This document shows positions 3,507 to 16,281 of a stretch of 32,000 nt of DNA, piece by piece. Where the stretch lies: positions 270,001 through 302,000 of the forward strand of contig CP025011.1 in assembly GCA_002952755.1 (NCBI GenBank), written 5' to 3'. The position numbers and the translations under genes are program-made. Position 1 is the stretch's first letter. Each line of letters starts with the position of its first letter. Below the pieces are notes generated by a model. It saw only the letters and a program-made list of their open reading frames with translations. It made no database searches and had not been told where the DNA came from. The stretch is from Candidatus Saccharimonadota bacterium. Its GTDB lineage: Bacteria > Patescibacteriota > Saccharimonadia > Saccharimonadales > UBA4665.

Positions 3507-4112
3507 ATGGTTCCGCTATTTGGATTTTTATCGGGTTTGCTGCCGCTACTAGGGTCTATTCCTTATATCCGGGATATTGTAAGACACGAGACGAAGCCTC
3601 ATCGTGGCTCATTTCTCATCTGGACTATCTTGGGTGGTATTGCTTTCTTTTCGCAGTTGGCGCAAGGGGCCTCTTGGTCGCTGCTGCTTCCGGCGGCGGA
3701 TACGGTGGCAACCTTGATTATTTTTGTCCAGTCGTTAGGGTACGGCGTCGGCGGCCTGAATAGACTGGACATAGGAGCGCTCACACTTGCAGCCCTTGGG
3801 CTCTTTTTGTGGTATATAACCGACCAGCCGTTTACAGCGCTACTGATTACGATAATCGTTGACGCTATCGGAGTGGCACTCACCGTGATCAAAACCTATC
3901 GCGATCCAGACAGTGAGACGTTTTCGTCGTGGCTACTGGATAGTATGGGTGGTTTATGCGCAGCACTAGCAGTCCATCGCTTGTCTCTGGACCTTTTGCT
4001 CTATCCTCTCTATCTCTTTGTTGCCGATGGAGTAGTAAACCTGACAATACTCATAGCACGGAAACAGGCGACCAATGGTTACCGTAAGAGTGCGTCATAT
4101 ATTAAGGAATAA
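3507..4112 (+). CDS. polytopic membrane protein, function unknown
   Basis: 201 aa with about 6 hydrophobic spans. The N-terminal motif IPYIRDIVRHETKPHRGSFLIW is loosely PQ-loop-like, which is only an impression. Confidence 0.6.
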   Translation: MVPLFGFLSGLLPLLGSIPYIRDIVRHETKPHRGSFLIWTILGGIAFFSQLAQGASWSLLLPAADTVATLIIFVQSLGYGVGGLNRLDIGALTLAALGLFLWYITDQPFTALLITIIVDAIGVALTVIKTYRDPDSETFSSWLLDSMGGLCAALAVHRLSLDLLLYPLYLFVADGVVNLTILIARKQATNGYRKSASYIKE

Positions 4113-4133
4113 CCATGCTACCTTTGACGATTG

Positions 4134-4895
4134 TTACCTTGTAACGATTGCTCTCGCTTGCTCGAAATCAGCCGCCGTGGGCACGATTCGTCCAGGCACC
4201 GACCACAGGTTGGCATGCTCAGCCAAGAGTAAGCCCGTCGCATTATTTACTTTATAGGTTCGATCAGAAACCGGTGGTAACTCGGCTTCTCCCTTGTGGG
4301 TAAGGAGTGTGATGCCGCATGCAGTGATGAGATTGTGGCCAAATACCAGGATTGTCGGCAGGGGCTGCGTAGGATCTGTGCGTGGCTGAAAGTCTGGCCG
4401 CTCTTTCGTTTCTTGGAACCATCGCAGCCATTGCTCGCCAGCTTCGCGCGGTGTTTGCGCCTTTCGGGTGGGTGTCTCCTCACCATGTCGAAAATCCCAG
4501 TCATCGTCAGCTTGTTGTTTTACGGCTTCCGGATATACTTCATTTCGCCGCCTTCCCTCAAAGCTTCCTTTTTGTAGTTCCCCGAGTTGAAGGGTTGGCG
4601 GAACGATAGTGAGGTTAGGCGTGTGTGTAAGCGCCAGATCACGCGTTGTTTTTGCACGGCGAGTGTCTGCGGCGTGGACACTCACAACCTGAATATTATT
4701 TCGGACTGCGAACCTTCCGAATGCTATGCCAAAGGCATGCGATTGAATGACACCTTCAGGTGCATCAATAGGCATGTCTGGGCTAAGCCCCTGTACAAGA
4801 TTGTCGGGCCGCCCTTCATATCTTGCTTTATTGACGGGTGTGATTGCGTGACGGACTAGAACTGCCAATCTGGTCGCCTCAGAGAGTTCTCCCAT
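4134..4895 (-). CDS. histidine phosphatase (phosphoglycerate mutase-like) superfamily protein
   Basis: VLVRHA (RHG-type motif), ADTRRAKTT (S/T-x2-RA-x2-T), ELQKGSFEG (E-x3-G-x2-EG) and a C-terminal VFGHN histidine, all in the canonical order. Confidence 0.65.
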   Translation of the reverse strand: MGELSEATRLAVLVRHAITPVNKARYEGRPDNLVQGLSPDMPIDAPEGVIQSHAFGIAFGRFAVRNNIQVVSVHAADTRRAKTTRDLALTHTPNLTIVPPTLQLGELQKGSFEGRRRNEVYPEAVKQQADDDWDFRHGEETPTRKAQTPREAGEQWLRWFQETKERPDFQPRTDPTQPLPTILVFGHNLITACGITLLTHKGEAELPPVSDRTYKVNNATGLLLAEHANLWSVPGRIVPTAADFEQARAIVTR

Positions 4896-5922: not shown

Positions 5923-7770
5923 GTGGCGCTAGAGAGGATCATGGAACCGCAGCAGCTAGACGCGCGATCTGTTAGCGCTGATGACACGCAGCAGTCCACT
6001 GCAGCTAGTACGGGGGTTTTTGCTCCGGATGTATTGGTTTCTCCTGGCGCTTTGACTGGTCCAGGGCAAAACGCGCTAGAAGGGCCATACACTGCCGCGC
6101 CATTACCCCAGGCGCCGATACTTAAAAAGCCAAACGCTGGCTTTTGGTCTTTAAAGCGCCTAAGTCTCGTTATATTGGCGGCACTCGTCGTTACGGGGAG
6201 TGGGATCCTCTTTTTTAGACATCATACCCCGAGTACACCGGTTGTCGTGGGCAATTTTAATACCGTTCATCTGTCCCTTGACGATTTTGCCGAAACTGGT
6301 CCAACACCGAAGAAGGGAGTGCAAACGCTAACGGTGAGTGGTCGATTGCAGGCTGACGGTTCGTTTATTCTTACTCCTTCGCTACAACCAGCTACCGCCA
6401 GCCCAGGGCAGTTGTATTATGATAAAGGCGCTAACCAGCTGGCCTATTATAATGGCTCGCAATTTGTGGCACTGAGCGGCGCTTCCTCCTCCCAGAGCAC
6501 CACGGTGAATAACAGCACGACCACGATTAACGGTGCGCTCAATGCAGTTACTAGTCCGGGCGGCACAATAGGGACCCTGCCGATTTTTACCGGCGGCCAG
6601 ACGGTGGGCGACTCGATTGTGTCGCAAGTGGGCGGCAGTCTGAATGTTGGTGGCAACCTTAATCTTATTAATAACGCGCCTGCAACATCAATGACGATCT
6701 GGGATCCTACGACGGTGCCCGCTACGCCTAATTTTGTTGACGCTAACGCCGTGGAACTCGGTTTAAAATTTCAGAGCGACGTCAGCGGTCTGGCCACCGG
6801 TATACGTTTTTATAAGGGAACGCAAAATACCGGGGCGCACGTGGGTAATTTATGGACAAGAACTGGTACGCTTCTGGCTACGGTGAACTTTACCAACGAA
6901 ACTGCTTCGGGCTGGCAGCAGGCTAATTTCAGTTCGCCCGTATCACTTGATCCTGCCACTACGTATATTGTTTCGTATCATACCAATGTCGGGTTTTATT
7001 CGGCAGATTCGCTGTACTTTGCAGGGCATGAGTTCGATCATCCGCCCTTGCACGCTCTTCAGAGTGGCGCAGATGGTACCAACGGGGTATTTGAATACAG
7101 CAACACAAGTACCTTTCCGAGCACCCAACGCGGAGGAGGTTCTAACTACTGGGTGGATGTAGTGTTCACGCCGAGCTCTAATCCAGGGCGTTTTGAGATT
7201 GCTGGCGCGCAAATCAGTTCATCGGCGCTTGCCAATAATTATGACATTGCTAAACGGAGCAACGATCAGGCGTTTACGGGCATCAATACCTTCCGCAATG
7301 CTACCGATTCCGGCGCTAGTTTTGTCATTCAGGATGCCGCTGCCACACCACTCTTTACGGCGGATACGATAAACGCCCGGATTACGATTTCCAAGCTAAT
7401 CGTGAATACCGACATAACCATTAACGGGCATATCATAACCAACGGCACGCAGCCACCGGTTATAACGGCAGGACCAGCAGCATGCACTACGCCAACGGTT
7501 ACTGCGGTAGGCGATGACACTGCGGGGCTGTTGACAGTAACCACCGGCACAGGCTGTGCGGGCGTGGGCAAGCTGGCAACTGGCACCTTTTTCGCTCCCT
7601 TTGTGGCCGCTCCGCGCGTGTTCTTAACGCCAGCCAATAGCAATGCGGCTGGTTTAACGACGTATATAGATAGTGCAACAATCAGTCCGACGGCATTCGA
7701 TTTGCAGGTAAGCGGTGGCACTATTGCAGACACTACAACCTATAAGTGGTATTACGCAGTCATACAGTAA
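5923..7770 (+). CDS. membrane-anchored surface protein with DUF4082 domain and H-type-lectin-like C-terminus
   Basis: One TM (aa 76-98). Aa 258-415 read AVELGLKFQSDVSGLATGIRFYKGTQNTGAHVGNLWTRTGTLLATVNFTNETASGWQQANFSSPVSL...TTYIVSYHTNVGFYSAD...SNYWVDVVF, a close match to my memory of DUF4082. The C-terminal FFAPFVAAPRVFLTPANSN...ISPTAFDLQV...YKWYYAVIQ resembles an H-type lectin domain. The start could instead be ATG 5941 (GAGAGG just upstream). Confidence 0.8.
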   Translation: MALERIMEPQQLDARSVSADDTQQSTAASTGVFAPDVLVSPGALTGPGQNALEGPYTAAPLPQAPILKKPNAGFWSLKRLSLVILAALVVTGSGILFFRHHTPSTPVVVGNFNTVHLSLDDFAETGPTPKKGVQTLTVSGRLQADGSFILTPSLQPATASPGQLYYDKGANQLAYYNGSQFVALSGASSSQSTTVNNSTTTINGALNAVTSPGGTIGTLPIFTGGQTVGDSIVSQVGGSLNVGGNLNLINNAPATSMTIWDPTTVPATPNFVDANAVELGLKFQSDVSGLATGIRFYKGTQNTGAHVGNLWTRTGTLLATVNFTNETASGWQQANFSSPVSLDPATTYIVSYHTNVGFYSADSLYFAGHEFDHPPLHALQSGADGTNGVFEYSNTSTFPSTQRGGGSNYWVDVVFTPSSNPGRFEIAGAQISSSALANNYDIAKRSNDQAFTGINTFRNATDSGASFVIQDAAATPLFTADTINARITISKLIVNTDITINGHIITNGTQPPVITAGPAACTTPTVTAVGDDTAGLLTVTTGTGCAGVGKLATGTFFAPFVAAPRVFLTPANSNAAGLTTYIDSATISPTAFDLQVSGGTIADTTTYKWYYAVIQ

Positions 7771-8073: not shown

Positions 8074-8093
8074 TAACTTAAGGTGCGGTGGGC

Positions 8094-9767
8094 ATGTATC
8101 CAAGTATCGATAAAATAAAATCTTTGCTGCTCAAAGAGAGCTACATCTCGGAAGAGGATAGCGCGGCTGCAGAAAAGGCCGCTAAAGACAGCGCAGGATA
8201 TATTGACTATCTTATTCGTCAGGAGCTACTGAGCAGGCCATTGCTAGGACAGGCTCTAGCTGAGGGCTATAAGCTGCCGTTTGCCGATTTTGGCACGGTG
8301 CCAATTTCTAAGGAGCAGGTTGCGTTAATCTCGGAAAACAATGCCCGGGCTATGCGTTTGGCTGTTGCCAAAGTGGAAGATAAAAATGTGGTGGTGGCTA
8401 CCGATACGCCGGAAAAGATCGAGCCGGCCAAGATTATGGCTCTTTTTCCTGGTAAAAAAGTGCGACTTGCATACACGCTCCCAGAGTATCTGGACGCCGC
8501 CTTTGAATTATATGAACAGCCGCTTGCCACGCGTTTTTCGAAGATTATTACCGAAAGTCGGCGTGTCGCCCCAGAAGTAGTGGATGAGATTATTAAAGAT
8601 GCCCTCGGTTTTAAAGCCAGTGACATCCACTTTGAACCGCGCGACCAAAAAGTGATGGTCCGCTTTCGGGTAGACGGCACGCTACGTGAAGCCGGAGAGC
8701 TCCCTAAAGAGTACTACGATAACGTGCTCAACCGCATCAAGGTAGAGAGCGGGATGCGCATCGACGAGCACTTGGCGGCGCAGGATGGAGCTATGCAGCG
8801 TGTCTACGATAACCGTTCGGTCGATCTTCGTGTATCGTTAGTGCCGACAGTCGAGGGTGAAAAGGTAGTGATGCGTGTCCTGGGGTCGTACGTGCAGGGT
8901 TTTACCTTTAGCGACGTTGGTCTGAATGAGGCTCATCGGGAGATTATGGAGCGCAACATCGTCAAGCCGTTTGGTATGATTTTAACCGTTGGCCCCACCG
9001 GTTCCGGCAAGAGCACCACGCTCTATTCGCTGCTCAAGATGCTCAATAAGCCGGACGTCAATATTACGACTATCGAGGATCCAGTGGAGTACCGGATGGC
9101 CGGTACCAACCAAATTCAGGTCCGCGACGCCAGCAATATGACCTTTGCCAAAGGGCTGCGGGCCATTGTCCGCCAGGACCCTGATGTTATCCTGGTGGGC
9201 GAGATTCGCGACCGCGAAACGGCCGAAATTAGCGTCAATGCGGCGCTTACAGGACACCTGCTGTTGTCTACCTTCCATGCCAACGACGCTGCGACTGCCT
9301 TGCCCCGCCTGGTGGATATGGGCATCGAACCATTCTTGCTGGCCTCAACGGTCGAGGTTATTATCGCCCAGCGTTTAGTCCGTCTCATCTGTTCACATTG
9401 CCGCTACAGCGTTTCGATCGAGGATGCGGCTAATCAGATTCATACATCTGCGCTCAATGTGCTGCAATACTTCCGAAAGGGCGATAATGTGTATGCCGGT
9501 AAGGGTTGCAACGTATGCAGCGGTAGCGGATATCAGGGGCGGACGGCGGTTTTTGAGATGATTGAGGTGACGCCTGAAATGCAGGAATTGATGCTGCATG
9601 CTCCTTCGAACCGCGAAATCGAAGAGCTGGCGCGTAAACAAGGCAGCCGTCCAATGTTTGAAGATGGTATCGATAAGGTAAAAAGGGGCATGACCACCCT
9701 AGCCGAAGTGCTCCGCGTGGTGTCGCCACCGACTGAAAAACAAAAGGAAGCCCACGATGTCGCCTAA
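8094..9767 (+). CDS. pilB: type IV pilus assembly ATPase PilB (GspE family)
   Basis: T2SSE N-terminal domain, Walker A GPTGSGKSTT, Asp/His boxes (TIEDPVEY, LVGEIRD, TGHLLLSTFHAND) and tetracysteine CSHC...CNVC. AGGTG (8081-8085) favours ATG 8094 over GTG 8088. Confidence 0.95.
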   Translation: MYPSIDKIKSLLLKESYISEEDSAAAEKAAKDSAGYIDYLIRQELLSRPLLGQALAEGYKLPFADFGTVPISKEQVALISENNARAMRLAVAKVEDKNVVVATDTPEKIEPAKIMALFPGKKVRLAYTLPEYLDAAFELYEQPLATRFSKIITESRRVAPEVVDEIIKDALGFKASDIHFEPRDQKVMVRFRVDGTLREAGELPKEYYDNVLNRIKVESGMRIDEHLAAQDGAMQRVYDNRSVDLRVSLVPTVEGEKVVMRVLGSYVQGFTFSDVGLNEAHREIMERNIVKPFGMILTVGPTGSGKSTTLYSLLKMLNKPDVNITTIEDPVEYRMAGTNQIQVRDASNMTFAKGLRAIVRQDPDVILVGEIRDRETAEISVNAALTGHLLLSTFHANDAATALPRLVDMGIEPFLLASTVEVIIAQRLVRLICSHCRYSVSIEDAANQIHTSALNVLQYFRKGDNVYAGKGCNVCSGSGYQGRTAVFEMIEVTPEMQELMLHAPSNREIEELARKQGSRPMFEDGIDKVKRGMTTLAEVLRVVSPPTEKQKEAHDVA

Positions 9768-10866
9768 AAAAGTGGCGGCCAGCGACAAAAAGGAGTCCGA
9801 GACCTTTAAAAAGGTCCGTTTGCCATTTAAGGAACGGGAGTATTTTACTGAGAATCTGGCGCTTTTACTTAAGTCGGCGGTTCCGGTGGGCGACGCTCTA
9901 GGATCGCTAGAAAATACGGTACGCAGCAAGCCAATGAAGCGGGCACTGGCCAACATGCGCATCGATATCGACGCTGGGTATCCGCTGGCAGACTCCCTGG
10001 AGCGCAGCGGTTTGTCATCAGGACAAACATTGGCGCTGGTGCGGCTGGGCGAGCATTCCGGGCATCTGGTAGAAAACTTGCAGCTGGCCGCGCAGCAAGA
10101 AGAAAAGCGGCATATTTTTCGCGCCAAAGTCCGCTCAGCGCTCATCTATCCGGCTTTTGTGCTTACGCTGACGGGGGTAGTTGGTCTTGGCGTAGCCTGG
10201 TTTTTGCTTCCCCGCCTAAGTTCGACGTTTTCGCAGCTGCATGTCCATTTGCCTTTGGTGTCGCGGGTCATGATTGGCGCCGGCATCTTTTTAAAGGCGC
10301 ATGGGCTGGTAGTAATACCGTTGTTTCTCTTGTTTTGTGCCGCCGTGTTTTATGTCTTATTTTTAGCGCCCAAAACCAAGAAAGCAGGCAAGCTGCTATT
10401 GTTTGCTTTTCCTGGTATCGGCCGGCTGATGCGCGAGGTCGAGATCGCCCAATTCGGTTATCTGCTCGGTACGTTGCTGGAAGCTGGCTTGTCGATTACC
10501 GATGCTTTGCAGCTGCTGGTGGGTGCATCGGCTGCCCCGCAGTACCAGGATTTTTATCACTATTTGGCGCATTCTCTGGACGACGGCTTCAGCTTTAAAG
10601 ATTCGCTGCAGCGCTATAAGGGGAGTGCAAAGTTGCTGCCTGGCGCAGTGCAGCAGATGGTGGTTGCTGGCGAGCGCTCCGGCTCGCTCAGCGAAGTATT
10701 GCTTACGGTAGGTCGGACCTATGAACAAAAGGCAGATGTGACGACGGCCAACCTGGAGGCGATTATCGAGCCTGTTATGCTCGTTGGCGTCGGAATCGGC
10801 GTGATGCTGGTAGCGATTGCCGTTATTTTGCCAATTTATAGCTTAGTGGGCGGATTGGGAAAATGA
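9757..10866 (+). CDS. pilC: type IV pilus platform protein PilC (GspF family)
   Basis: Two T2SSF-type repeats with TM segments, in the position after pilB. AAGGAAG SD. The ATG overlaps the pilB end by 11 nt. Confidence 0.9.
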   Translation: MSPKKVAASDKKESETFKKVRLPFKEREYFTENLALLLKSAVPVGDALGSLENTVRSKPMKRALANMRIDIDAGYPLADSLERSGLSSGQTLALVRLGEHSGHLVENLQLAAQQEEKRHIFRAKVRSALIYPAFVLTLTGVVGLGVAWFLLPRLSSTFSQLHVHLPLVSRVMIGAGIFLKAHGLVVIPLFLLFCAAVFYVLFLAPKTKKAGKLLLFAFPGIGRLMREVEIAQFGYLLGTLLEAGLSITDALQLLVGASAAPQYQDFYHYLAHSLDDGFSFKDSLQRYKGSAKLLPGAVQQMVVAGERSGSLSEVLLTVGRTYEQKADVTTANLEAIIEPVMLVGVGIGVMLVAIAVILPIYSLVGGLGK

Positions 10867-11300
10867 GACGTGAGGGTGGTTTTACGCTGGTGGAGATGCT
10901 TTTGTCGGTAACGATCATTAGCATATTGGTCGGCGCATCGCTACCGGTGTATGAATCTTTCGTGCGCCGCAACGATTTGGATCTGACCACGCAATCGGTA
11001 GTGGCGCTTATTCGCCGGGCGGAAGCCTATGCGCGAACGATGTATGGAGACACGGCCTGGAGCGTCGAACTCCAGCCGTCCACGGTAACCTTGTTTGCTG
11101 GAACGAATTTTGCAGGCCGTAATACGGGGCTGGACGAAACGATGAGCGTGCCAGCTTCCATCGCGTTGAGTGGTCTGGGCGAAATACAATTTACTAAATT
11201 GAGCGCAGTGCCGAACACCACCGGCACAGTGACACTTAGCAGTACAACTAACGATACAAGGACGATCTCTGTCAATGCCAAAGGTATGGTCGATTACTAG
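10863..11300 (+). CDS. minor pilin, GspH/FimT-like (prepilin N-terminal methylation motif)
   Basis: MRREGG|FTLVEMLLSVTIISILVG is a class III signal with Glu at +5, and the 145-aa size and body resemble GspH/FimU. ATGA overlap with the pilC stop. Confidence 0.85.
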   Translation: MRREGGFTLVEMLLSVTIISILVGASLPVYESFVRRNDLDLTTQSVVALIRRAEAYARTMYGDTAWSVELQPSTVTLFAGTNFAGRNTGLDETMSVPASIALSGLGEIQFTKLSAVPNTTGTVTLSSTTNDTRTISVNAKGMVDY

Positions 11301-12711
11301 ATTAGGACAGGACCGCAAAGAGTGCGGTTTTTCGATTGTCGAGCTACTGCTGGCAGTAACTATATTCGGGATGCTGACCACCGGGCTGATTGGCGCAATC
11401 GTATATGGCCGTGCATCTACGGCCAATGCCGGCGACACGGCGCGCGGACAATTGCTGGCCGAGGAAGGTATCGAAGCGACGCGCAATATTGCCAATGCCT
11501 CATTTGCCAATCTGGTTGATGGCTCATACGGCTTAACCCAAAGCGGCAGTCCCCTGTCATGGTCGTTCCTAGGCAGCGGCACGAGTGACACCACAGGCGT
11601 TTATACCAGACAGGTAACCATCGCCACGGCGGGCACTAATCGCAAAACGATCACCAGTACGGTCACCTGGCCGGAATTTGGCGGCTCTACGGGCACCATT
11701 GCACTAACTGCCCGCCTGGTGAACTGGGCCGCCTCGCTCAAACTCTGGTCTAACACAGTCGTCGGTACCAGTAACGACGTTACTGGTACAAATAATGGGC
11801 TCAAAACTGCAACCTCCGGCAACTACGCCTACACCGTGTTGAACGTGGCTACCACCAATAACTTCGTGGTAACTAATCTGACTAACCCAGCCGCCCCAAC
11901 CAGTACTGCGTTTTCGATTGCCGGTACCCCCACGAATATCTTTGTGGCAGGCAACTACGCCTACGTGACTAATCAGCTCGACACCGCCGAATTGCAAGTA
12001 GTCGATATTACTAACCCGGCTGCACCATCGGTCGTTGCCAGCGTTGATATGACGGGCACCGGCAACGGGCAGGGCATATATGTGTCAAATGGGTACGCCT
12101 ATGTGGTACGCGCAGCCGATGTTACCACGAGCGCTAACGAGCTCACTATCGTTAATGTTGCCAATCCCACTACGCCGGTAGTGGTTGGCGGCTACAACAA
12201 CGACATTTCGATGAATGAGGTTACGGTGATCGGCACCAATGCCTTCATCGCCACCAGTTCCACCACTCAGGAGATGTTGGTCGTGAATGCCGCAGTCCCT
12301 GCCGCTCCGGTCTTAAGTGCTACGTATAATGCGCCCACAAGCGTGGCTGCTACCACAATTGCCAGCTATGGTAATACTGTCTTGCTCGGGATGAGCACGA
12401 CGCTCAGCGCCATCAATGTGACGACGCCCACGACGCCAGCATTGTATAGCTCGTTTACGGCAGTCGGGGCAATCAACGATATTAGTGTCGATATCCTGAA
12501 TACAACCGCCTTTCTAGGCACTGCTAGCACTACGGGCGAATTTCAAGCCATCAACATTACGACACCAACAGCCATGACTCTACTGAAAACCGTGGATGTA
12601 ACGGGAACCACCAGCACTGTTAGCGGCGTCTCGTATGCCAGTTCACTAGATGTTGTGGTGGGCGCTTCGGCCTCTGATACGCAAGAAGTGCTCATCTTTA
12701 ACAGGAATTAG
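11275..12711 (+). CDS. pilin-like protein fused to a seven-repeat LVIVD-type beta-propeller
   Basis: KECG|FSIVELLLAVTIFGML prepilin motif (E at +5), then a pseudopilin-like body. Aa ~176-478 hold seven ~45-aa repeats of the form GNYAYV...ELQVVDITNPAAPSVV / YAYVV...LTIVNVANPTTPVVV (LVIVD repeat pattern). The start overlaps the upstream gene by 26 nt. Confidence 0.8.
   Translation: MPKVWSITRLGQDRKECGFSIVELLLAVTIFGMLTTGLIGAIVYGRASTANAGDTARGQLLAEEGIEATRNIANASFANLVDGSYGLTQSGSPLSWSFLGSGTSDTTGVYTRQVTIATAGTNRKTITSTVTWPEFGGSTGTIALTARLVNWAASLKLWSNTVVGTSNDVTGTNNGLKTATSGNYAYTVLNVATTNNFVVTNLTNPAAPTSTAFSIAGTPTNIFVAGNYAYVTNQLDTAELQVVDITNPAAPSVVASVDMTGTGNGQGIYVSNGYAYVVRAADVTTSANELTIVNVANPTTPVVVGGYNNDISMNEVTVIGTNAFIATSSTTQEMLVVNAAVPAAPVLSATYNAPTSVAATTIASYGNTVLLGMSTTLSAINVTTPTTPALYSSFTAVGAINDISVDILNTTAFLGTASTTGEFQAINITTPTAMTLLKTVDVTGTTSTVSGVSYASSLDVVVGASASDTQEVLIFNRN
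11752..12708 (+). repeat. seven tandem LVIVD-like coding repeats (protein level)
   Basis: Blades begin near aa 176, 211, 254, 304, 348, 393 and 436. The recurring core is hydrophobic-x-V/I-V/I-D/N-hydrophobic-T/A-N/T-P-x-x-P. The repeats are diverged at nucleotide level. Confidence 0.6.
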
Positions 12712-12715
12712 CAGT

Positions 12716-13696
12716 ATGAAATACAGAAGACACAATCAGACCGGCTACACCCTTGTTGAGCTGCTGCTCTATATTGCCATCGTCGGCTCGCTGCTTACGG
12801 CTATCGTGTTCTTTTTAGGTACTACCGTCGAATCGCGCCTCAAGAACGAAACCATAAGTGAGGTGAATGACCAAGGCGCGAGCATCATGGATACGCTGAC
12901 ACAGACCATCCGTAACGCTACGTCAATCACCAGTCCGGCCAGCGGCGCCAGCCTGCCGGCTTTAACGCTTGTGGTGCCGACGGGCACGCTTAGTCCAACG
13001 GTATTTGATCTGAGCGGTACGCTGTTCGGTCTAAACCTTGACGGTGGTACGAGCGATACGAGTGACCATGACGCCATGAACGCTACTAAGATTGTAGCGG
13101 GAGCAACGGGCACAATCTCATCGCTGAATGCCTACGTGGCAACCGTTGCCGCGAGTCCAAATAATCAGGCACAGATGGCCTTATATAGCGGCACCACGCC
13201 CACAACGCTTCTTGCAACGAGCTCCAGTGTAACGCTTAAAGCTAACACCTGGAATAATTTCCCCATTCCTACTACCCCGGTTACTAGTGGCCAGACGTAT
13301 TGGATCGCTTATAACACCAACGGCCTGGCCACTGGCGATAATGACTTGCGTGAGCGGTCCGGCTCTGCCGGGCAGTCCGGTTTTTTGGCGCAGACATTTG
13401 GCACCTGGCCTAATTCGTGGACGCCCACTACGCAAAGTACAGAATTTTCGATGTACGCGATGATCGACCCAGCCAATACCCCAGGTGCGATTCGGATTAA
13501 AGAGGGGTCGGGCAGCGTGGTGCCGCTTACCGACAGCAATGTGCAGCTGAGTGGCCTCAATTTCAGGAATCTTACCCGGACTGGCGCACCCGGTGTTATA
13601 CAGATCACCTTCACACTCTCACGGTTAAACCCGCTGGGCCGCAACGAGTACGATTATCAAAAAACGTTTACTGCTTCGGCCGAGGTGGGGTGGTGA
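12716..13696 (+). CDS. pilin-like protein with an inserted DUF4082-like jelly-roll module
   Basis: MKYRRHNQTG|YTLVELLLYIAIVGSLL prepilin motif. ATG 12716 follows the upstream stop by 4 nt, and the ORF-track start 12650 lies inside the previous gene. Aa ~105-250 (ATKIVAGATGTISSLNAYVA...QMALYSG...LLATSSSVTLKANTWNNFPIPTTPVTSGQTYWIAYNTNG) follow the same pattern as the DUF4082 core of 5923..7770. Confidence 0.8.
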   Translation: MKYRRHNQTGYTLVELLLYIAIVGSLLTAIVFFLGTTVESRLKNETISEVNDQGASIMDTLTQTIRNATSITSPASGASLPALTLVVPTGTLSPTVFDLSGTLFGLNLDGGTSDTSDHDAMNATKIVAGATGTISSLNAYVATVAASPNNQAQMALYSGTTPTTLLATSSSVTLKANTWNNFPIPTTPVTSGQTYWIAYNTNGLATGDNDLRERSGSAGQSGFLAQTFGTWPNSWTPTTQSTEFSMYAMIDPANTPGAIRIKEGSGSVVPLTDSNVQLSGLNFRNLTRTGAPGVIQITFTLSRLNPLGRNEYDYQKTFTASAEVGW

Positions 13697-14709
13697 TGGA
13701 GGGGCAACGTCAAGCTGGATATGTCGCATTGCTAGCAGTGCTCATAGTCGGTGCGGTCGCTACGGCTATCGCATTGGCTCTGCTCGCGATTGGAGCAGAC
13801 AGCCAGCGGTCGGCTCTGGTTTTGCAACAAGCCAAGCAGGCTCGTTCATTAGCGATAGCTTGCGGTGAGGAAGCGTTGCAGCAGGTGCACGACAACGTTG
13901 CTTTTAAGGGAACGAATACTCTTTCTCTTGGCCAAGGTACCTGCAGCTATATCGTGTCTGGCACAACCGCCACAACCCGGACGGTGGCGGCAACCGGCAC
14001 GGTCGGCACGGTGGTTAAGCGGCTTACCGCCACCGCAACCGTCGGCGCGTCAACGCTCACCGTGAGCTCATGGAAGGAGGCAAGTACCAACGGGCCTTCT
14101 ACTCCTACATTCGTGCAAGTGGTGAGCGCCACGCCGCAAACCAGCCCGACTTCGGTCGCAGCAACCTACGCTGCTGAAACGGCCGGCAACACCAACGTGG
14201 TGATAATTGGATGGAAAAACGCCACAACGACGATTAGCTCGGTTGTTGATTCGGCCGGCAACACCTATCAGATAGCTGCACAATTGACGCGCGGCACCAA
14301 TGTAAGCCAGGCGATCTATTACGCAAAGAATATTACCGGTGGGACGCCGACTGTTACAGTAACCTTTAGCGCTGCCAGCGCCACTCCAGATTTGCGGATT
14401 ATGGAATACGGCGGGCTTGATGCGACAAGTCCGTTCGATTCGTCGGTATCGGCAGTGGGCAACACTGCAGCAAGCAGTAGCGGCACGGTAAATACGAACT
14501 ACCCGACTGATCTGATCGTGGGCGCTGGCACTGCCCAGACTGCGTTTAGTGCAGCTGGCTCCGGCTATACCCAACGTATTCTCACGCCCACTGATAATAA
14601 TATTGCCGAAGACAAGGTGGTTAGCTCGGCCGGAGCATATACGGCTACTGCTACAGCCAGCGGTAACTGGGTAATGCAGGCTGCTGCCTTCCGTGCAGCT
14701 GGACAATAA
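13696..14709 (+). CDS. PilX/GspK-like minor pilin (no Glu+5) with ~200-aa C-terminal beta-rich domain
   Basis: QAG|YVALLAVLIVGAVATAIALALLAIGADSQRSALVLQQAKQARSLAIACGEEAL matches the PilX N-terminal pattern, and +5 is Leu rather than Glu. TGATG overlap with the upstream stop. The C-terminal domain (aa 135-337) is unassigned. Confidence 0.7.
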   Translation: MEGQRQAGYVALLAVLIVGAVATAIALALLAIGADSQRSALVLQQAKQARSLAIACGEEALQQVHDNVAFKGTNTLSLGQGTCSYIVSGTTATTRTVAATGTVGTVVKRLTATATVGASTLTVSSWKEASTNGPSTPTFVQVVSATPQTSPTSVAATYAAETAGNTNVVIIGWKNATTTISSVVDSAGNTYQIAAQLTRGTNVSQAIYYAKNITGGTPTVTVTFSAASATPDLRIMEYGGLDATSPFDSSVSAVGNTAASSSGTVNTNYPTDLIVGAGTAQTAFSAAGSGYTQRILTPTDNNIAEDKVVSSAGAYTATATASGNWVMQAAAFRAAGQ

Positions 14710-14775
14710 GAGACCATTTCAAAAATCTCTCCTGCAGCCGGCTGATGACGAAATGGGGATGGGCTTACATATATA

Positions 14776-14784
14776 TGCTACAAT
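14776..14784 (+). promoter_or_regulatory. extended -10 element (TGcTACAAT), candidate major-pilin promoter
   Basis: Sits in the 155-nt gap before the pilin gene, about 80 nt upstream of ATG 14865. The 9-mer is identical to those at 7921 and 27539. Confidence 0.4.
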
Positions 14785-14864
14785 TGGTCGGTAAGCATAA
14801 GCGGTATTCAGATATAGTGGATCGGCTAATGCAGTAAGCATATAAAAGAAAGGGTTCGGGCTGT

Positions 14865-15359
14865 ATGCGACGTCTTAAAAATATTAAACAACAAGCACAG
14901 GCGGGGTTCACGCTGTTGGAAGTCTTACTGGTGGTGGCCATCATCGCCATTTTGGCAGGTATCGTTATTATTGCGATCAACCCTGGTAAAAACCTCGGCG
15001 ATGCGCGTAACTCACAGCGTTCAGCCGATGTAAATACCATCATCAACGGTACATACCAATACATTTTGGACAACAACGGCAATTTGCCCGCTGTGGGCGC
15101 ACGTACTGGCGCCGTGGCAATTTCTACTACCCCTACTGAAATTTGTGTGACTACCGGTTCAACATGTACTGGTTTGGTTGACCTCGCAGTACTTACTACA
15201 AATGGTAAATATCTAGTTGCGATTCCAAAAGACCCGTCTTGTCCTACGGGCTGTAACGCCAACGGCGTGGGTTATACCATCGCAAAAGATGTGAACGGCC
15301 GTTTGGTTGTGAACGCTCCTGGTGTGGAAAACGGTAAAACCATTCAAGTAACGAAGTAG
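14865..15359 (+). CDS. type IV major pilin candidate
   Basis: MRRLKNIKQQAQAG|FTLLEVLLVVAIIAILAGIVIIAI, followed by ARNSQRSADVNTI. Small (164 aa) with two close Cys pairs (EICVTTGSTC, SCPTGC). It has its own promoter and a downstream terminator. Confidence 0.9.
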   Translation: MRRLKNIKQQAQAGFTLLEVLLVVAIIAILAGIVIIAINPGKNLGDARNSQRSADVNTIINGTYQYILDNNGNLPAVGARTGAVAISTTPTEICVTTGSTCTGLVDLAVLTTNGKYLVAIPKDPSCPTGCNANGVGYTIAKDVNGRLVVNAPGVENGKTIQVTK

Positions 15360-15535: not shown

Positions 15536-15563
15536 AGTACCGGCTACTGTGAAATTACAAAAA

Positions 15564-15593
15564 GACTGCCTCGCTTTCAGAGGCGGTCTTTTT
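15564..15593. terminator. bidirectional rho-independent terminator
   Basis: GACTGCCTC (15564-15572) / loop GCTTTCA / GAGGCGGTC (15580-15588) gives a 9-bp stem with one G-U. It is flanked by AAAAA upstream and TTTTT downstream, between convergent genes. Confidence 0.6.
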
Positions 15594-15597
15594 GCTT

Positions 15598-16281
15598 CTA
15601 GTTATAGAGGGCTGGCTTTGGCAGGCCCTGAAGCCAGTCTGTAAAGTCCGGACCGATATTTTGATTTGCGTGACTGTTTGGGTGGCTATCGGGAAAGCCG
15701 ATGCGGCTCCAAGTGCTTCGGAATTCTTTTTTAAGCATATGCTGGCTGTTGCTTAGGCGATTATAAAAATCAAACACCCGGATATTTTGGCCAAAGTCGC
15801 TGGTTTCAAGCCATGTGGCGAGTTGGCGGGCACGGGCAGCTTCCTGGCTATCTGTCTTCTTGGGCGCGAGCGGTGGCGTGGTTACGATCCCTAGGCAAAG
15901 GGCGGGGCGCGCTCGAAAAAATTGCATGATCGCTGTGTACTGATCGCGCACTTCCTCCAACTCGGCATCGCTTTTGATAGCATTTACCGGATAGCAGGAC
16001 TTGATAACAACGGTGTCATAGTCGCGTAGTATGTTTTGCAGCTGCGGATCGTGTTGATTGTAGTCGCTAAAGAAAGTGGCGTAGGCATCTGGTGTTGTAT
16101 TATCCCCAGTAAGCAGGACCGTATAGGGTCGGCTCCGTCCGTCTGCATCGGTAAGCAAGTGTGCGTTATTGTCATAGTCGCTGAACTGGAGTTCGTGCTT
16201 TGGCAGCAATTCACGGACGCGGCCTTGTTTGAGTAGCCGTTTGCCACACGAGCGATGAATAAATAATATGCGGGGAGTCAT
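15598..16281 (-). CDS. hypothetical protein (227 aa)
   Basis: Long ORF with balanced composition. No confident family. A C-terminal DSHPN is faintly SGNH-hydrolase-like, but the other blocks were not seen. Confidence 0.6.
   Translation of the reverse strand: MTPRILFIHRSCGKRLLKQGRVRELLPKHELQFSDYDNNAHLLTDADGRSRPYTVLLTGDNTTPDAYATFFSDYNQHDPQLQNILRDYDTVVIKSCYPVNAIKSDAELEEVRDQYTAIMQFFRARPALCLGIVTTPPLAPKKTDSQEAARARQLATWLETSDFGQNIRVFDFYNRLSNSQHMLKKEFRSTWSRIGFPDSHPNSHANQNIGPDFTDWLQGLPKPALYN

Follow-up and report, generated by a model that had tools for sequence, protein, structure and literature searches.

The 478-residue protein encoded within a type IV pilus operon in the 32-kb window (the whole stretch of DNA analysed) is a propeller pilin, in which a class III prepilin signal and a small pilin module are joined in one chain to a seven-bladed LVIVD beta-propeller. 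The design is real and widespread, and this protein is an uncharacterised instance of the described class of modular pilins. We propose that it is probably a modular minor pilin of the Patescibacteria type IV pilus, with the propeller shown at the tip as a putative ligand-binding, most probably host-binding, module.

The propeller pilin is encoded by a single intact gene

The open reading frame (11275..12711, + strand, 478 aa) contains no internal stops and is preceded by AAGGA about 14 nt upstream of its ATG. The encoded protein falls into four segments:

11275..11328, + strand, leader peptide, residues 1–18, the last being Gly-1 (MPKVWSITRLGQDRKECG, followed directly by FSIVE)
11329..11727, + strand, pilin (carrier) module, residues 19–151, alpha1 helix and six-strand head, ending in an invariant LxNW
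11728..11757, + strand, linker, residues 152–161, with AF2 pLDDT below 50 at residues 151–153
11758..12711, + strand, seven-bladed LVIVD beta-propeller, residues 162–478, and stop codon (Pfam, AF2, repeats, Foldseek)

Such a protein could be produced artificially if a small pilin gene and an LVIVD surface-protein gene had been joined by an assembly or sequencing error, and a stand-alone pilin of 140–210 aa does occupy the same position in some relatives. We give this explanation almost no credence. The frame is continuous, and two independent Logan assemblies carry the identical 478-aa gene with its neighbours unchanged. Homology searching at E ≤ 1e-3 recovered 814 homologs from different studies, carrying the precomputed annotation PF08309; among the best 120 of these, identity was at least 48% throughout and 91 spanned at least 90% of the query, and the fusion is common to hundreds of these homologs. 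The junction between head and propeller is kept in the homologs, with W151 and W158 invariant, and the AF2 model forms one continuous chain. The gene thus withstood the misassembly check for which the earlier note had called.

The N-terminal part has the features of a type IV pilin

Class III signals comprise a short polar leader ending in Gly, a hydrophobic residue at +1 and Glu at +5, followed by about 20 hydrophobic residues. The propeller pilin reads RKEC-G18 before the predicted processing site and F19-S-I-V-E23 after it, placing Glu at +5, and its predicted mature N-terminus, following KECG, is FSIVELLLAVTIFGMLTTGLIGAIVYG. Pfam N_methyl (PF07963) matched residues 14–38 with 24.8 bits against a cut-off of 21.2, and NCBIfam TIGR02532 scored marginally below its own threshold (15.8 versus 16.3). 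Conservation was read from three alignments, A1 (70 homologs), A2 (a wider set from 26 loci) and A3: E23 and W132 were invariant in all three, W151 in A1 and A3, and G18 was invariant in A1 and at least 90% conserved in A2. The class III motif was present in 133 of the 150 best carrier-cluster representatives, and leader length in homologs had a median of 15 residues (range 12–44). The above-threshold N_methyl match, the invariant E23 and the conserved G18 bear out the class III prepilin signal with Glu+5 claimed in the earlier note.

In the lollipop fold of type IV pilins, a long alpha1 helix packs against a head made of an antiparallel beta-sheet. AF2 predicted this arrangement in both the full-length and the module-only model (pLDDT 79 for the latter), with a helix at residues 21–75 followed by a six-strand head at 83–149, in agreement with the pilin-like body that had been claimed to follow the signal. 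A Foldseek search of the PDB with the head gave nothing significant, solved pilins included (best E 0.15). The assignment to PilV/GspI/ComGE is accordingly tentative: it is based on gene order, the protein being second in the fimU-pilV-pilW-pilX (gspH-I-J-K, comGD-E-F-G) series, and on one sub-threshold NCBIfam ComGE match (E 0.0059, 16.7 bits versus a cut-off of 49); some homologs are named 'PilV' by JGI. The linker and the leader are the least conserved segments of the protein, at about 44% identity versus 58–67% elsewhere.

The C-terminal part is a seven-bladed LVIVD propeller

Pfam LVIVD (PF08309) matched the propeller pilin with 56.1 bits (cut-off 20.2). The AF2 full-length model, computed from the 70-sequence alignment, had a mean pLDDT of 90.1 and placed 28 strands over residues 162–476, corresponding to seven blades of four strands with pLDDT mostly above 90. 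Seven segments of 43–50 aa could be aligned on the motif G-N-Y-A-Y-V...E-L-x-V-V-N-I-T-N-P-A-A-P, and the first blade shared 17–42% pairwise identity with the other six. The Pfam scan and the structure prediction suggested in the earlier note thus gave the results expected there, with N_methyl and LVIVD both exceeding their thresholds and an alpha1 helix, a small head and a closed-looking seven-blade propeller in a model of pLDDT 90. Of its placement of seven LVIVD repeats at about residues 176–478, the number was upheld by Pfam, alignment and AF2, but the start moved to about residue 162.

The best PDB matches of the full model in Foldseek were seven-bladed propellers with E-values of 5e-11 and weaker, headed by 5hrm, the seven-bladed phosphotriesterase of Sphingobium sp. 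TCM1 (E 5e-11, TM 0.52, identity 10–11%). This top match raises the possibility that the propeller is a surface-displayed enzyme for which the pilin-like N-terminus is merely a membrane anchor, an idea that we regard as very improbable. Identity to 5hrm is low, and WD40 scaffolds score almost equally well. His, Cys and Trp are absent from the propeller, and 70 homologs have a median of zero His residues, so that a His-liganded metal centre is unlikely. In addition, a true pilin is favoured over a simple anchor by Glu+5, which is invariant, by the conservation of Gly-1 and by the constant position of the gene within the minor-pilin set.

The propeller is strongly acidic, with 17 Asp and Glu against 4 Lys and Arg. 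Its residues E289, Y454 and D459 are invariant, and R279 and D441 nearly so. The source of the DNA is a tiny parasitic soil bacterium (Saccharimonadales). Within Saccharimonadales, identity was 58% for the propeller versus 61% for the pilin head.

The gene lies in a minor-pilin set conserved across Patescibacteria

The propeller-pilin gene belongs to a tightly packed operon in the order PilB, PilC, GspH/FimU-like pilin, propeller pilin, pilin in the PilW position, PilX/ComGG-like protein and major-type pilin. Its other features are:

8088..9767, + strand, PilB-type assembly ATPase, first operon gene (Pfam T2SSE 401.6 bits, MshEN 28 bits)
9757..10866, + strand, PilC-type inner-membrane platform protein (Pfam T2SSF 159 bits, two stretches)
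10863..11300, + strand, minor pilin of 145 aa, position 1, GspH/FimU/ComGD-like (N_methyl 32.5 bits)
12716..13696, + strand, minor pilin of 326 aa in the PilW/GspJ position (position 3), carrying an additional beta domain (N_methyl 22.9 bits)
13696..14709, + strand, PilX/ComGG-like protein of 337 aa, position 4, its C-terminal domain expanded (weak ComGG match, E 0.042)
14865..15359, + strand, pilin of 164 aa, position 5, candidate major pilin (N_methyl 31.3 bits; GspG-like, E 1.7e-7)
15558..15594, no strand assigned, strong bidirectional hairpin terminator at the operon end (15-bp stem, then a T-run)

The pilC gene shares 11 nt with pilB and 4 nt with the pilin gene downstream. The propeller pilin is second of four minor-pilin positions and shares the operon with three N_methyl pilins and the PilX-like gene. 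The earlier note had put it between pilC and the PilX-like gene; it does lie inside that interval, but one pilin separates it from each. The 145-aa pilin, a type kept at position 1 in related loci, gave weak NCBIfam matches, one to ComGD over almost the whole length (E 1.3e-5) and one to GspH (E 2.4e-5). The start of the 326-aa pilin was taken as called in independent assemblies; most relatives have a core of about 170 aa, and comparison of the extra domain with the upstream DUF4082 protein revealed no significant relation (E 0.18). The 337-aa protein has a hydrophobic, non-canonical N-terminus and a core of about 130 aa in relatives, and the position-5 pilin is present in one to three copies in relatives. 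The possibility that homologs of the propeller pilin of about 620 aa arose by fusion to the 145-aa pilin encoded upstream was rejected, as the extra sequence is an insert of about 140 aa within the pilin head, between 'ANLVD' and 'GSYGL', and is homologous (E 2e-13) to the extra domain of the 326-aa pilin.

Among 80 related species-level loci from many Patescibacteria classes, the order PilB, PilC, 145-aa-type pilin, position-2 pilin, 326-aa-type pilin and PilX was complete in 61, and the PilB gene was kept upstream of the pilins in 61. Among these is the locus of the cultured Minisyncoccus archaeiphilus, whose pilin matches LVIVD with 80.5 bits. Pfam scans of the window ORFs detected no member of the PilY1/PilC family. 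Prepilin peptidase (Peptidase_A24/PilD), PilM and PilT were not found within the 32-kb window, nor were PilD, PilM and PilT found beside the operon in M. archaeiphilus; TM7x, another Saccharibacterium, encodes pilD.

The pilin module carries different C-terminal payloads

Searching with the N-terminal pilin module returned a family of 378 clusters at E ≤ 1e-30, in which the module was always N-terminal. Position 2 of the 80 loci was occupied by an LVIVD protein in 42, by a protein with a different module, of 400 aa or more, in 19 and by a short protein in 18; of the 150 best carrier-cluster representatives, 68 had LVIVD, 29 a different large module and 53 either a small module or no module. 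The payload differs by lineage, the LVIVD propeller being the commonest, with other repeat modules, beta-sandwiches or nothing elsewhere. A Pfam search of the alternative payloads gave no match for the W-rich repeat, the 'SGDVGxYTS' repeat or the beta-sandwich modules. The pilin module is thus a conserved carrier with a lineage-dependent C-terminal payload.

Relation to known pilins and propeller proteins

Modular pilins are a defined class that displays adhesive modules on pili (Raynaud et al. 2021, PNAS, PMC8179133). The propeller pilin, with an IPR012902 motif and an extra domain attached via a short linker, falls within this class. As in other members, a class III signal and a small pilin module are followed by a short linker and a bulky C-terminal module that is not specific to type IV pili, with proposed exposure at the tip; the module itself differs, being a seven-blade LVIVD propeller here, a vWA module in Streptococcus sanguinis PilB and a lectin module in its PilC. 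The earlier note had held the architecture to be undescribed, a claim that finds no support. Dataset S1 of the same study tabulates IPR012902 together with IPR013211, which is LVIVD, in eight rows covering 31 proteins in total, and its text mentions a Falkowbacteria pilin with 12 LVIVD repeats. There, the repeat is called a 'motif of unknown function', and the fusions are tabulated without structure, operon context or function (PMC8179133). Novelty is further undercut by the published TM7x pilin discussed below. Other LVIVD surface proteins of bacteria and archaea (PF08309) share the repeat family and are likewise predicted to be extracellular, but typical members are described just as cell-surface proteins of unknown function, whereas the propeller pilin has a prepilin signal and a pilus operon. 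A literature search for LVIVD together with pilin or propeller surfaced just one, unrelated, Tenderiales preprint.

In Pseudomonas, Neisseria and Myxococcus, PilY1/PilC is a large propeller protein tied to the FimU-PilV-PilW-PilX complex that is implicated in adhesion and in the priming of assembly, and the known gene order is fimU-pilV-pilW-pilX-(pilY1)-pilE. The association of a propeller with the minor-pilin set is common to both systems, and this order parallels that of the window operon. They differ in that PilY1 is a separate, non-pilin polypeptide, whereas the LVIVD propeller is covalently fused to a pilin. The PilY1 propeller forms its own family, IPR008707 (PMC8179133), to which the propeller pilin does not belong: Pfam gave LVIVD and N_methyl alone, and no PilY1 structure was among the 50 Foldseek matches listed. 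The suggestion in the earlier note of a covalent PilY1 counterpart stands as a reasonable analogy, not as family membership. Because the operon encodes a full FimU/PilV/PilW/PilX-like set and no PilY1 gene, a functional counterpart fused in cis is a sensible reading.

A closer precedent comes from Nanosynbacter lyticus TM7x, in which the minor pilin PilX2 carries a C-terminal seven-bladed beta-propeller and has been proposed as a PilY1-like adhesin; deletion of pilX2 lowered host binding from 10.6% to 4.6% and altered filament number and length (Grossman et al. 2025, ISME J, PMC12206443). TM7x-like contigs were recovered by means of the published knockout primer, and PilX2 was compared directly. 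Both proteins are Saccharibacteria minor pilins with a C-terminal propeller, encoded in five-pilin clusters with the same order logic. The propeller of PilX2 is of the RCC1 type (Pfam RCC1, 164 bits), whereas that of the propeller pilin is LVIVD and lacks an RCC1 match; PilX2 is the fourth-position protein and has a PilX-type carrier whose N-terminus is non-canonical, and the propeller pilin stands at position 2 and has a canonical G|FxxxE signal. Identity of the two was rejected (best BLASTP E 0.82, unrelated families), and the LVIVD HMM gave no match in the TM7x-like contigs. Profiles from the window operon matched the TM7x locus-3 pilins weakly, at 12–27 bits, and what is common to both loci is a generic five-gene logic, so that positional orthology with that locus is not claimed; the best match of the 164-aa pilin, a weak one, was the TM7x-like PilA2, at 27 bits.

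Proposed role of the propeller pilin

The domain order and operon context allow us to suggest how the protein may act. Prepilin peptidase would cut after Gly18, and the alpha1 helix would then pack with those of the three other minor pilins in a priming complex that comes to lie at the tip of the pilus. Joined to the head at its C-terminal end, the propeller would be displayed there as a ligand-binding module and would most probably bind a host-cell surface structure in episymbiotic attachment. Such an adhesin role, drawn by analogy, would be the same job as that of the separate PilY1 in Proteobacteria and apparently also of the unrelated RCC1-propeller PilX2 in TM7x.

Alternatively, the propeller might be mainly structural, capping the minor-pilin complex, helping to start assembly and opposing retraction in the manner of the PilY1 propeller, and would then lack a specific ligand on the host. 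Its sequence is conserved to about the same degree as that of the pilin head within Saccharimonadales, unlike a fast-evolving host-specificity determinant, and this fits a structural or priming role as well. The gene lies within the minor-pilin set, which primes assembly in other type IV pilus systems (Treuner-Lange et al. 2020, as cited in PMC12206443); PilY1 is absent from the operon; and the pilX2 deletion in TM7x affected filaments as well as binding. We nevertheless consider this reading unlikely, as the position-2 pilin has a small module or none in 18 of the 80 operons and unrelated modules in 19, so that the propeller is dispensable for assembling this machinery, and swapping of payloads is more in keeping with a module that faces a ligand than with a core structural part.

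A second alternative, in which the operon product is a pseudopilus of the Com or T2SS kind that takes up DNA or nutrients, with the propeller as substrate receptor, for example for DNA, appears quite improbable. The gene order resembles comGA-GB-(GC)-GD-GE-GF-GG, ComGD, ComGE and ComGG gave weak matches, no PilT gene was found in the window, and Patescibacteria are naturally competent, their type IV pili being thought to act with Com proteins (PMC10633639). Against this, the acidity of the propeller is unfavourable for binding DNA, and in TM7x the thin pilus aided host binding, not competence (PMC12206443). In Southlakia, epibiotic growth needs the type IV pilus genes, and their essentiality is separate from comEC (PMC10633639).

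Returning to the host-binding role, a broader and more tentative extension, which we think possible but doubtful, is that the position-2 pilin is a general payload carrier whose module sets the recognisable host surface, the LVIVD pilin being the main host-range determinant for much of the candidate phyla radiation and payload swapping reflecting host change. The payload would then be the LVIVD propeller in the majority of lineages, among them M. archaeiphilus, a parasite of an archaeon, and other propellers, beta-sandwiches or a Cys-knot elsewhere.

The propeller pilin establishes no new principle, since both modular pilins and a Saccharibacterial pilin with a propeller had already been published. 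Of the devices by which Patescibacteria may attach to their hosts, type IV pili have the best support to date (TM7x, TM7i, Southlakia), and the propeller-pilin family provides a concrete, widespread candidate for their host-binding part. The pairing of a conserved carrier with a swappable payload suggests a simple genomic marker for comparing the host specificity of uncultured lineages. Since the family is found across hundreds of lineages and has at least one cultured carrier, M. archaeiphilus PMX.108, its proposed role in host binding is directly testable.

Domain architecture of the propeller pilin

The propeller pilin, at position 2 of a minor-pilin series, is the 478-aa product of an uninterrupted ORF (11275–12711, + strand) that the earlier note had read as a prepilin signal fused in cis to an LVIVD beta-propeller. 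Pfam bore out this reading, as both the prokaryotic N-terminal methylation motif (PF07963, residues 14–38, 24.8 bits against a cut-off of 21.2) and the LVIVD repeat (PF08309, 56.1 bits against 20.2) scored above cut-off; the NCBIfam version of the pilin motif fell slightly under its own (15.8 versus 16.3). The signal reads MPKVWSITRLGQDRKEC-G18 / F19-S-I-V-E23 and is followed by a hydrophobic stretch. Gly −1 and Glu +5 were invariant in an alignment of 70 homologs (A1), and across 26 loci from many lineages Glu +5 of the position-2 signal was invariant and Gly −1 was kept in at least 90%. Leader peptides of the family (window 11275–11328; A1) begin with a conserved M-x-K-V/A-W motif and are long compared with those of type IVa-like pilins (median 15 residues, range 12–44).

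An AlphaFold2 model calculated from the 70-sequence alignment was confident (mean pLDDT 90.1) and returned the anticipated fold: an alpha1 helix (residues 21–75), a six-strand pilin head (83–149), a weak linker (pLDDT <50 at 151–153) and, from 162 to 476, 28 strands forming seven four-stranded blades. The blade count proposed earlier stands, and the sole correction concerns the start of the repeats, near residue 162 in the model rather than at 176. The seven segments cut at the blade boundaries and aligned gave the repeat G-N-Y-A-Y-V...E-L-x-V-V-N-I-T-N-P-A-A-P. Foldseek comparison of the model with the PDB returned seven-bladed propellers (best E 5e-11). The top fold match, a phosphotriesterase, is the sole pointer to an enzymatic role for the propeller, which is unlikely: identity to that enzyme is about 10%, almost equal scores are reached by WD40 scaffolds, and the propeller is devoid of His, Cys and Trp (median His count across the 70 homologs, 0).

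A misassembled fusion of two genes had been raised as a possible artefact, and the check for it was negative. Besides the uninterrupted frame, an identical 478-aa protein with the same neighbours was found on independently assembled contigs from two different sequencing runs, 814 homologs matched at E ≤1e-3 among 5.8 billion proteins, and the head–propeller junction is conserved, with W151 and W158 invariant. The best 120 of the 814 homologs all share at least 48% identity, and 91 of these 120 cover at least 90% of the query. The propeller pilin is a true single gene, and named database sources place its family in Candidatus Saccharimonadales. Fusion with the upstream gene was also ruled out for a subset of homologs of about 620 aa (P0007, P0017 and P0024), in which a domain of about 140 aa is inserted inside the pilin head.

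The pilin operon

The operon is compact, with reading frames that overlap or nearly abut.

Genes of the pilin operon (window positions)
8088–9767: PilB ATPase (T2SSE, 401.6 bits)
9757–10866: PilC platform (T2SSF, 159 bits)
10863–11300: 145-aa pilin, GspH/ComGD-like
11275–12711, + strand: propeller pilin
12716–13696: 326-aa pilin
13696–14709: PilX/ComGG-like protein
14865–15359: 164-aa GspG-like pilin

Classical minor-pilin genes are ordered fimU-pilV-pilW-pilX-(pilY1)-pilE or comGD-GE-GF-GG. The window operon has the same order without a PilY1 gene, and Pfam scans of the other window ORFs found no member of the PilY1/PilC family. Assignment of the N-terminal module of the position-2 pilin, here termed the carrier, as the PilV/GspI/ComGE equivalent rests on this gene order, on the JGI annotation of some homologs and on one sub-threshold ComGE match; fold comparison of the carrier gave no informative pointer to subclass. 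Genes for a prepilin peptidase, PilM or PilT are absent from the 32-kb window, the remainder of which holds housekeeping genes (pyruvate kinase, PGK, TIM, UvrD and KsgA).

The extra domain of the 326-aa pilin is homologous to the head insert of the ~620-aa propeller pilins (41% identity, E 2e-13), so this module moves from one minor pilin to another. The PilX/ComGG-like protein is also oversized, at 337 aa versus about 130 aa in most related operons (its extra C-terminal ~200 aa had no significant Pfam match), so that one operon of the source genome holds three enlarged minor pilins. Directly upstream of pilB lies a gene for a 615-aa DUF4082 protein (5923–7770; 161 bits). The independent assembly L081 has this gene too, and the protein showed no significant similarity to the extra domains of the pilins (E 0.18). 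The operon is closed by a strong hairpin (15558–15594; 15-bp stem, T-runs on both strands), probably a bidirectional terminator, which separates it from a convergent GDSL-like gene (15598–16281, minus strand).

A conserved carrier with varying payloads

Scanning a single genome for each GTDB species gave 239 relatives, and in the best 80 of these all ORFs were searched with HMMs built from the window operon proteins. The full order PilB-PilC-pil145-position 2-pil326-PilX was found in 61 of the 80 loci, most exceptions being truncated contigs. The loci cover Saccharimonadales, Paceibacteria, Uhrbacteria, Jacksonbacteria, Moraniibacteriota, Berkelbacteria, Jorgensenbacteria, Daviesbacteria, Falkowbacteria and others, including the cultured archaeal parasite Minisyncoccus archaeiphilus PMX.108, which encodes a 481-aa position-2 pilin (LVIVD, 80.5 bits). 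The M. archaeiphilus operon (L033) is flanked upstream by a response-regulator gene (4089–4781) and downstream by PAS-domain and PAS/GAF histidine-kinase genes (11328–15151), which hints at two-component control of the pilus. Nine records (L015, L021, L023, L024, L040, L044, L052, L059 and L011) carry a typical Patescibacteria pilus operon under MAG titles that name Gammaproteobacteria, Bdellovibrionales, Nanoarchaeia or Acidoferrum; errors of binning or labelling are the probable cause.

The N-terminal ~150 residues of the position-2 pilin, ending in an LxNW motif, are conserved in all lineages, and the region that follows, the payload, varies by lineage. The payload was an LVIVD propeller at 42 of the 80 loci, a different module of 400 aa or more at 19 and small or absent at 18; these proportions are biased, since a propeller-derived pattern was part of the locus selection. 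We therefore ran an independent HMMER search with a carrier-only profile against 1.84 billion cluster representatives, which yielded 378 clusters at E ≤1e-30 and 1,808 at E ≤1e-10. The carrier was N-terminal in all 150 best representatives (111 to 1,300 aa), which bore an LVIVD propeller (68), another large module (29) or a small payload or none (53). Given this constant N-terminal module and lineage-varying C terminus, the pilin part is a conserved carrier whose most frequent payload is the LVIVD propeller.

The other large modules (≥400 aa) include a W-rich repeat of ~50 aa, a 'SGDVGxYTS' repeat and paired beta-sandwiches, none of which had a Pfam match. In other Saccharibacteria, Falkowbacteria and related lineages, a module of ~400 aa made of the Trp-rich repeats ('YRTWNGSAWS', 'IQTWNGTSWS') replaces LVIVD; it looks like another, undescribed propeller-type repeat. 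Several of the small payloads end in a Cys-rich knot of ~45 aa (approximately C..Y....GYS.GTCRQN..QC...GE.YESGGD..C....S.DTCCC.P), and some larger variants (P0139, P0150, P0200 and P0202) keep the knot and add further domains after it. Enlarged forms carry double LVIVD propellers (881 and 941 aa) or, in a protein of 954 aa, three fn3 domains after the LVIVD propeller. In one Saccharibacteria MAG (L034, 7968–14300), two LVIVD pilins of 484 aa each lie in tandem, and the LVIVD propeller HMM also matches a PilX-like protein of 978 aa, so the position-4 carrier can bear a propeller of this family as well.

Variant position-2 pilins (locus, positions)
Trp-rich repeat: L036 8001–9689; L039 7959–9659; L055 7977–9749; L060 7938–9788; L065 8001–9761; L072 5486–7219; L080 7950–9731
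Short, Cys-rich knot: L041 1322–1915; L044 7977–8606; L047 584–1189; L053 7989–8585; L067 7944–8567
Enlarged, double propeller and fn3: L059 3294–5936; L061 315–3140; L032 7944–10808

Comparison with known propeller-bearing pilins

The earlier note did not recognise the architecture as a described pilin class; that it is undescribed is wrong for both the class and the domain combination. Modular pilins were defined and surveyed in InterPro by Raynaud et al. 2021 (PMC8179133), whose Dataset S1 has eight rows (31 proteins in total) in which IPR012902 precedes one to thirteen copies of IPR013211, and whose text mentions an 860-residue Falkowbacteria pilin with 12 copies of this latter 'motif of unknown function'. 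As IPR013211 is the LVIVD repeat, the N_methyl and LVIVD architecture was already catalogued, though never analysed.

A second precedent is PilX2 of TM7x, a minor pilin described as having a 'hepta-bladed beta-propeller with RCC1 repeats' and likened to PilY1 (Grossman et al. 2025, PMC12206443). Using a published knockout primer as an exact DNA pattern, we recovered eight TM7x-like metagenome contigs, one of which (L086) encodes pilins of 163, 154 and 275 aa, then PilX2 (576 aa) and PilA2 (142 aa). Unlike the window protein, TM7x PilX2 has a PilX-type N terminus and a strong RCC1 match (164 bits). The window propeller pilin is not PilX2, as BLASTP found no similarity (best E 0.82), the repeats are LVIVD rather than RCC1 and the positions differ (2 versus 4). 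Window-operon HMMs matched the TM7x pilins weakly (12–27 bits), and the LVIVD HMM did not match them. Because the two proteins are dissimilar, they are independent solutions to the same problem, in which propellers were grafted on different minor pilins of the same kind of gene set. PilY1, in contrast, has a different propeller family and is a separate non-pilin polypeptide, so its likeness to the propeller pilin is functional only.

Proposed function

We suggest that PilD would cleave the propeller pilin after Gly18, that the alpha1 helix would pack with three other minor pilins into a priming complex that stays at the pilus tip, and that the propeller, on its short variable linker, would be displayed as a binding module for a host-surface ligand. 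By analogy, a role as a tip adhesin and PilY1 counterpart, as the earlier note proposed, is plausible and has close published precedent: Streptococcus sanguinis modular pilins display adhesive modules on pili (PMC8179133), and deletion of pilX2, the propeller-bearing minor pilin of the Saccharibacteria TM7x, reduced host binding from 10.6% to 4.6% of host cells (PMC12206443). In Southlakia, T4P genes are essential for epibiotic growth independently of comEC (PMC10633639). These TM7x and Southlakia data speak against a DNA receptor in a Com-like pseudopilus, a role also disfavoured by the charge of the propeller (17 Asp+Glu versus 4 Lys+Arg). Conservation of the propeller within Saccharimonadales is close to that of the pilin head (58% versus 61% identity to the window protein), which tempers the adhesin reading. 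The propeller may instead have a purely structural or priming role, in the manner of the PilY1 C-terminal domain; many related operons, however, function with a propeller-free pilin at position 2.

The modular-pilin class and the domain combination were already known; the present analysis adds three things. The LVIVD pilin forms a family of its own, with no relation to PilX2; its place is fixed in an operon that is conserved throughout Patescibacteria, a cultured strain among them; and its pilin module serves as a general carrier, the payloads of which are interchangeable.
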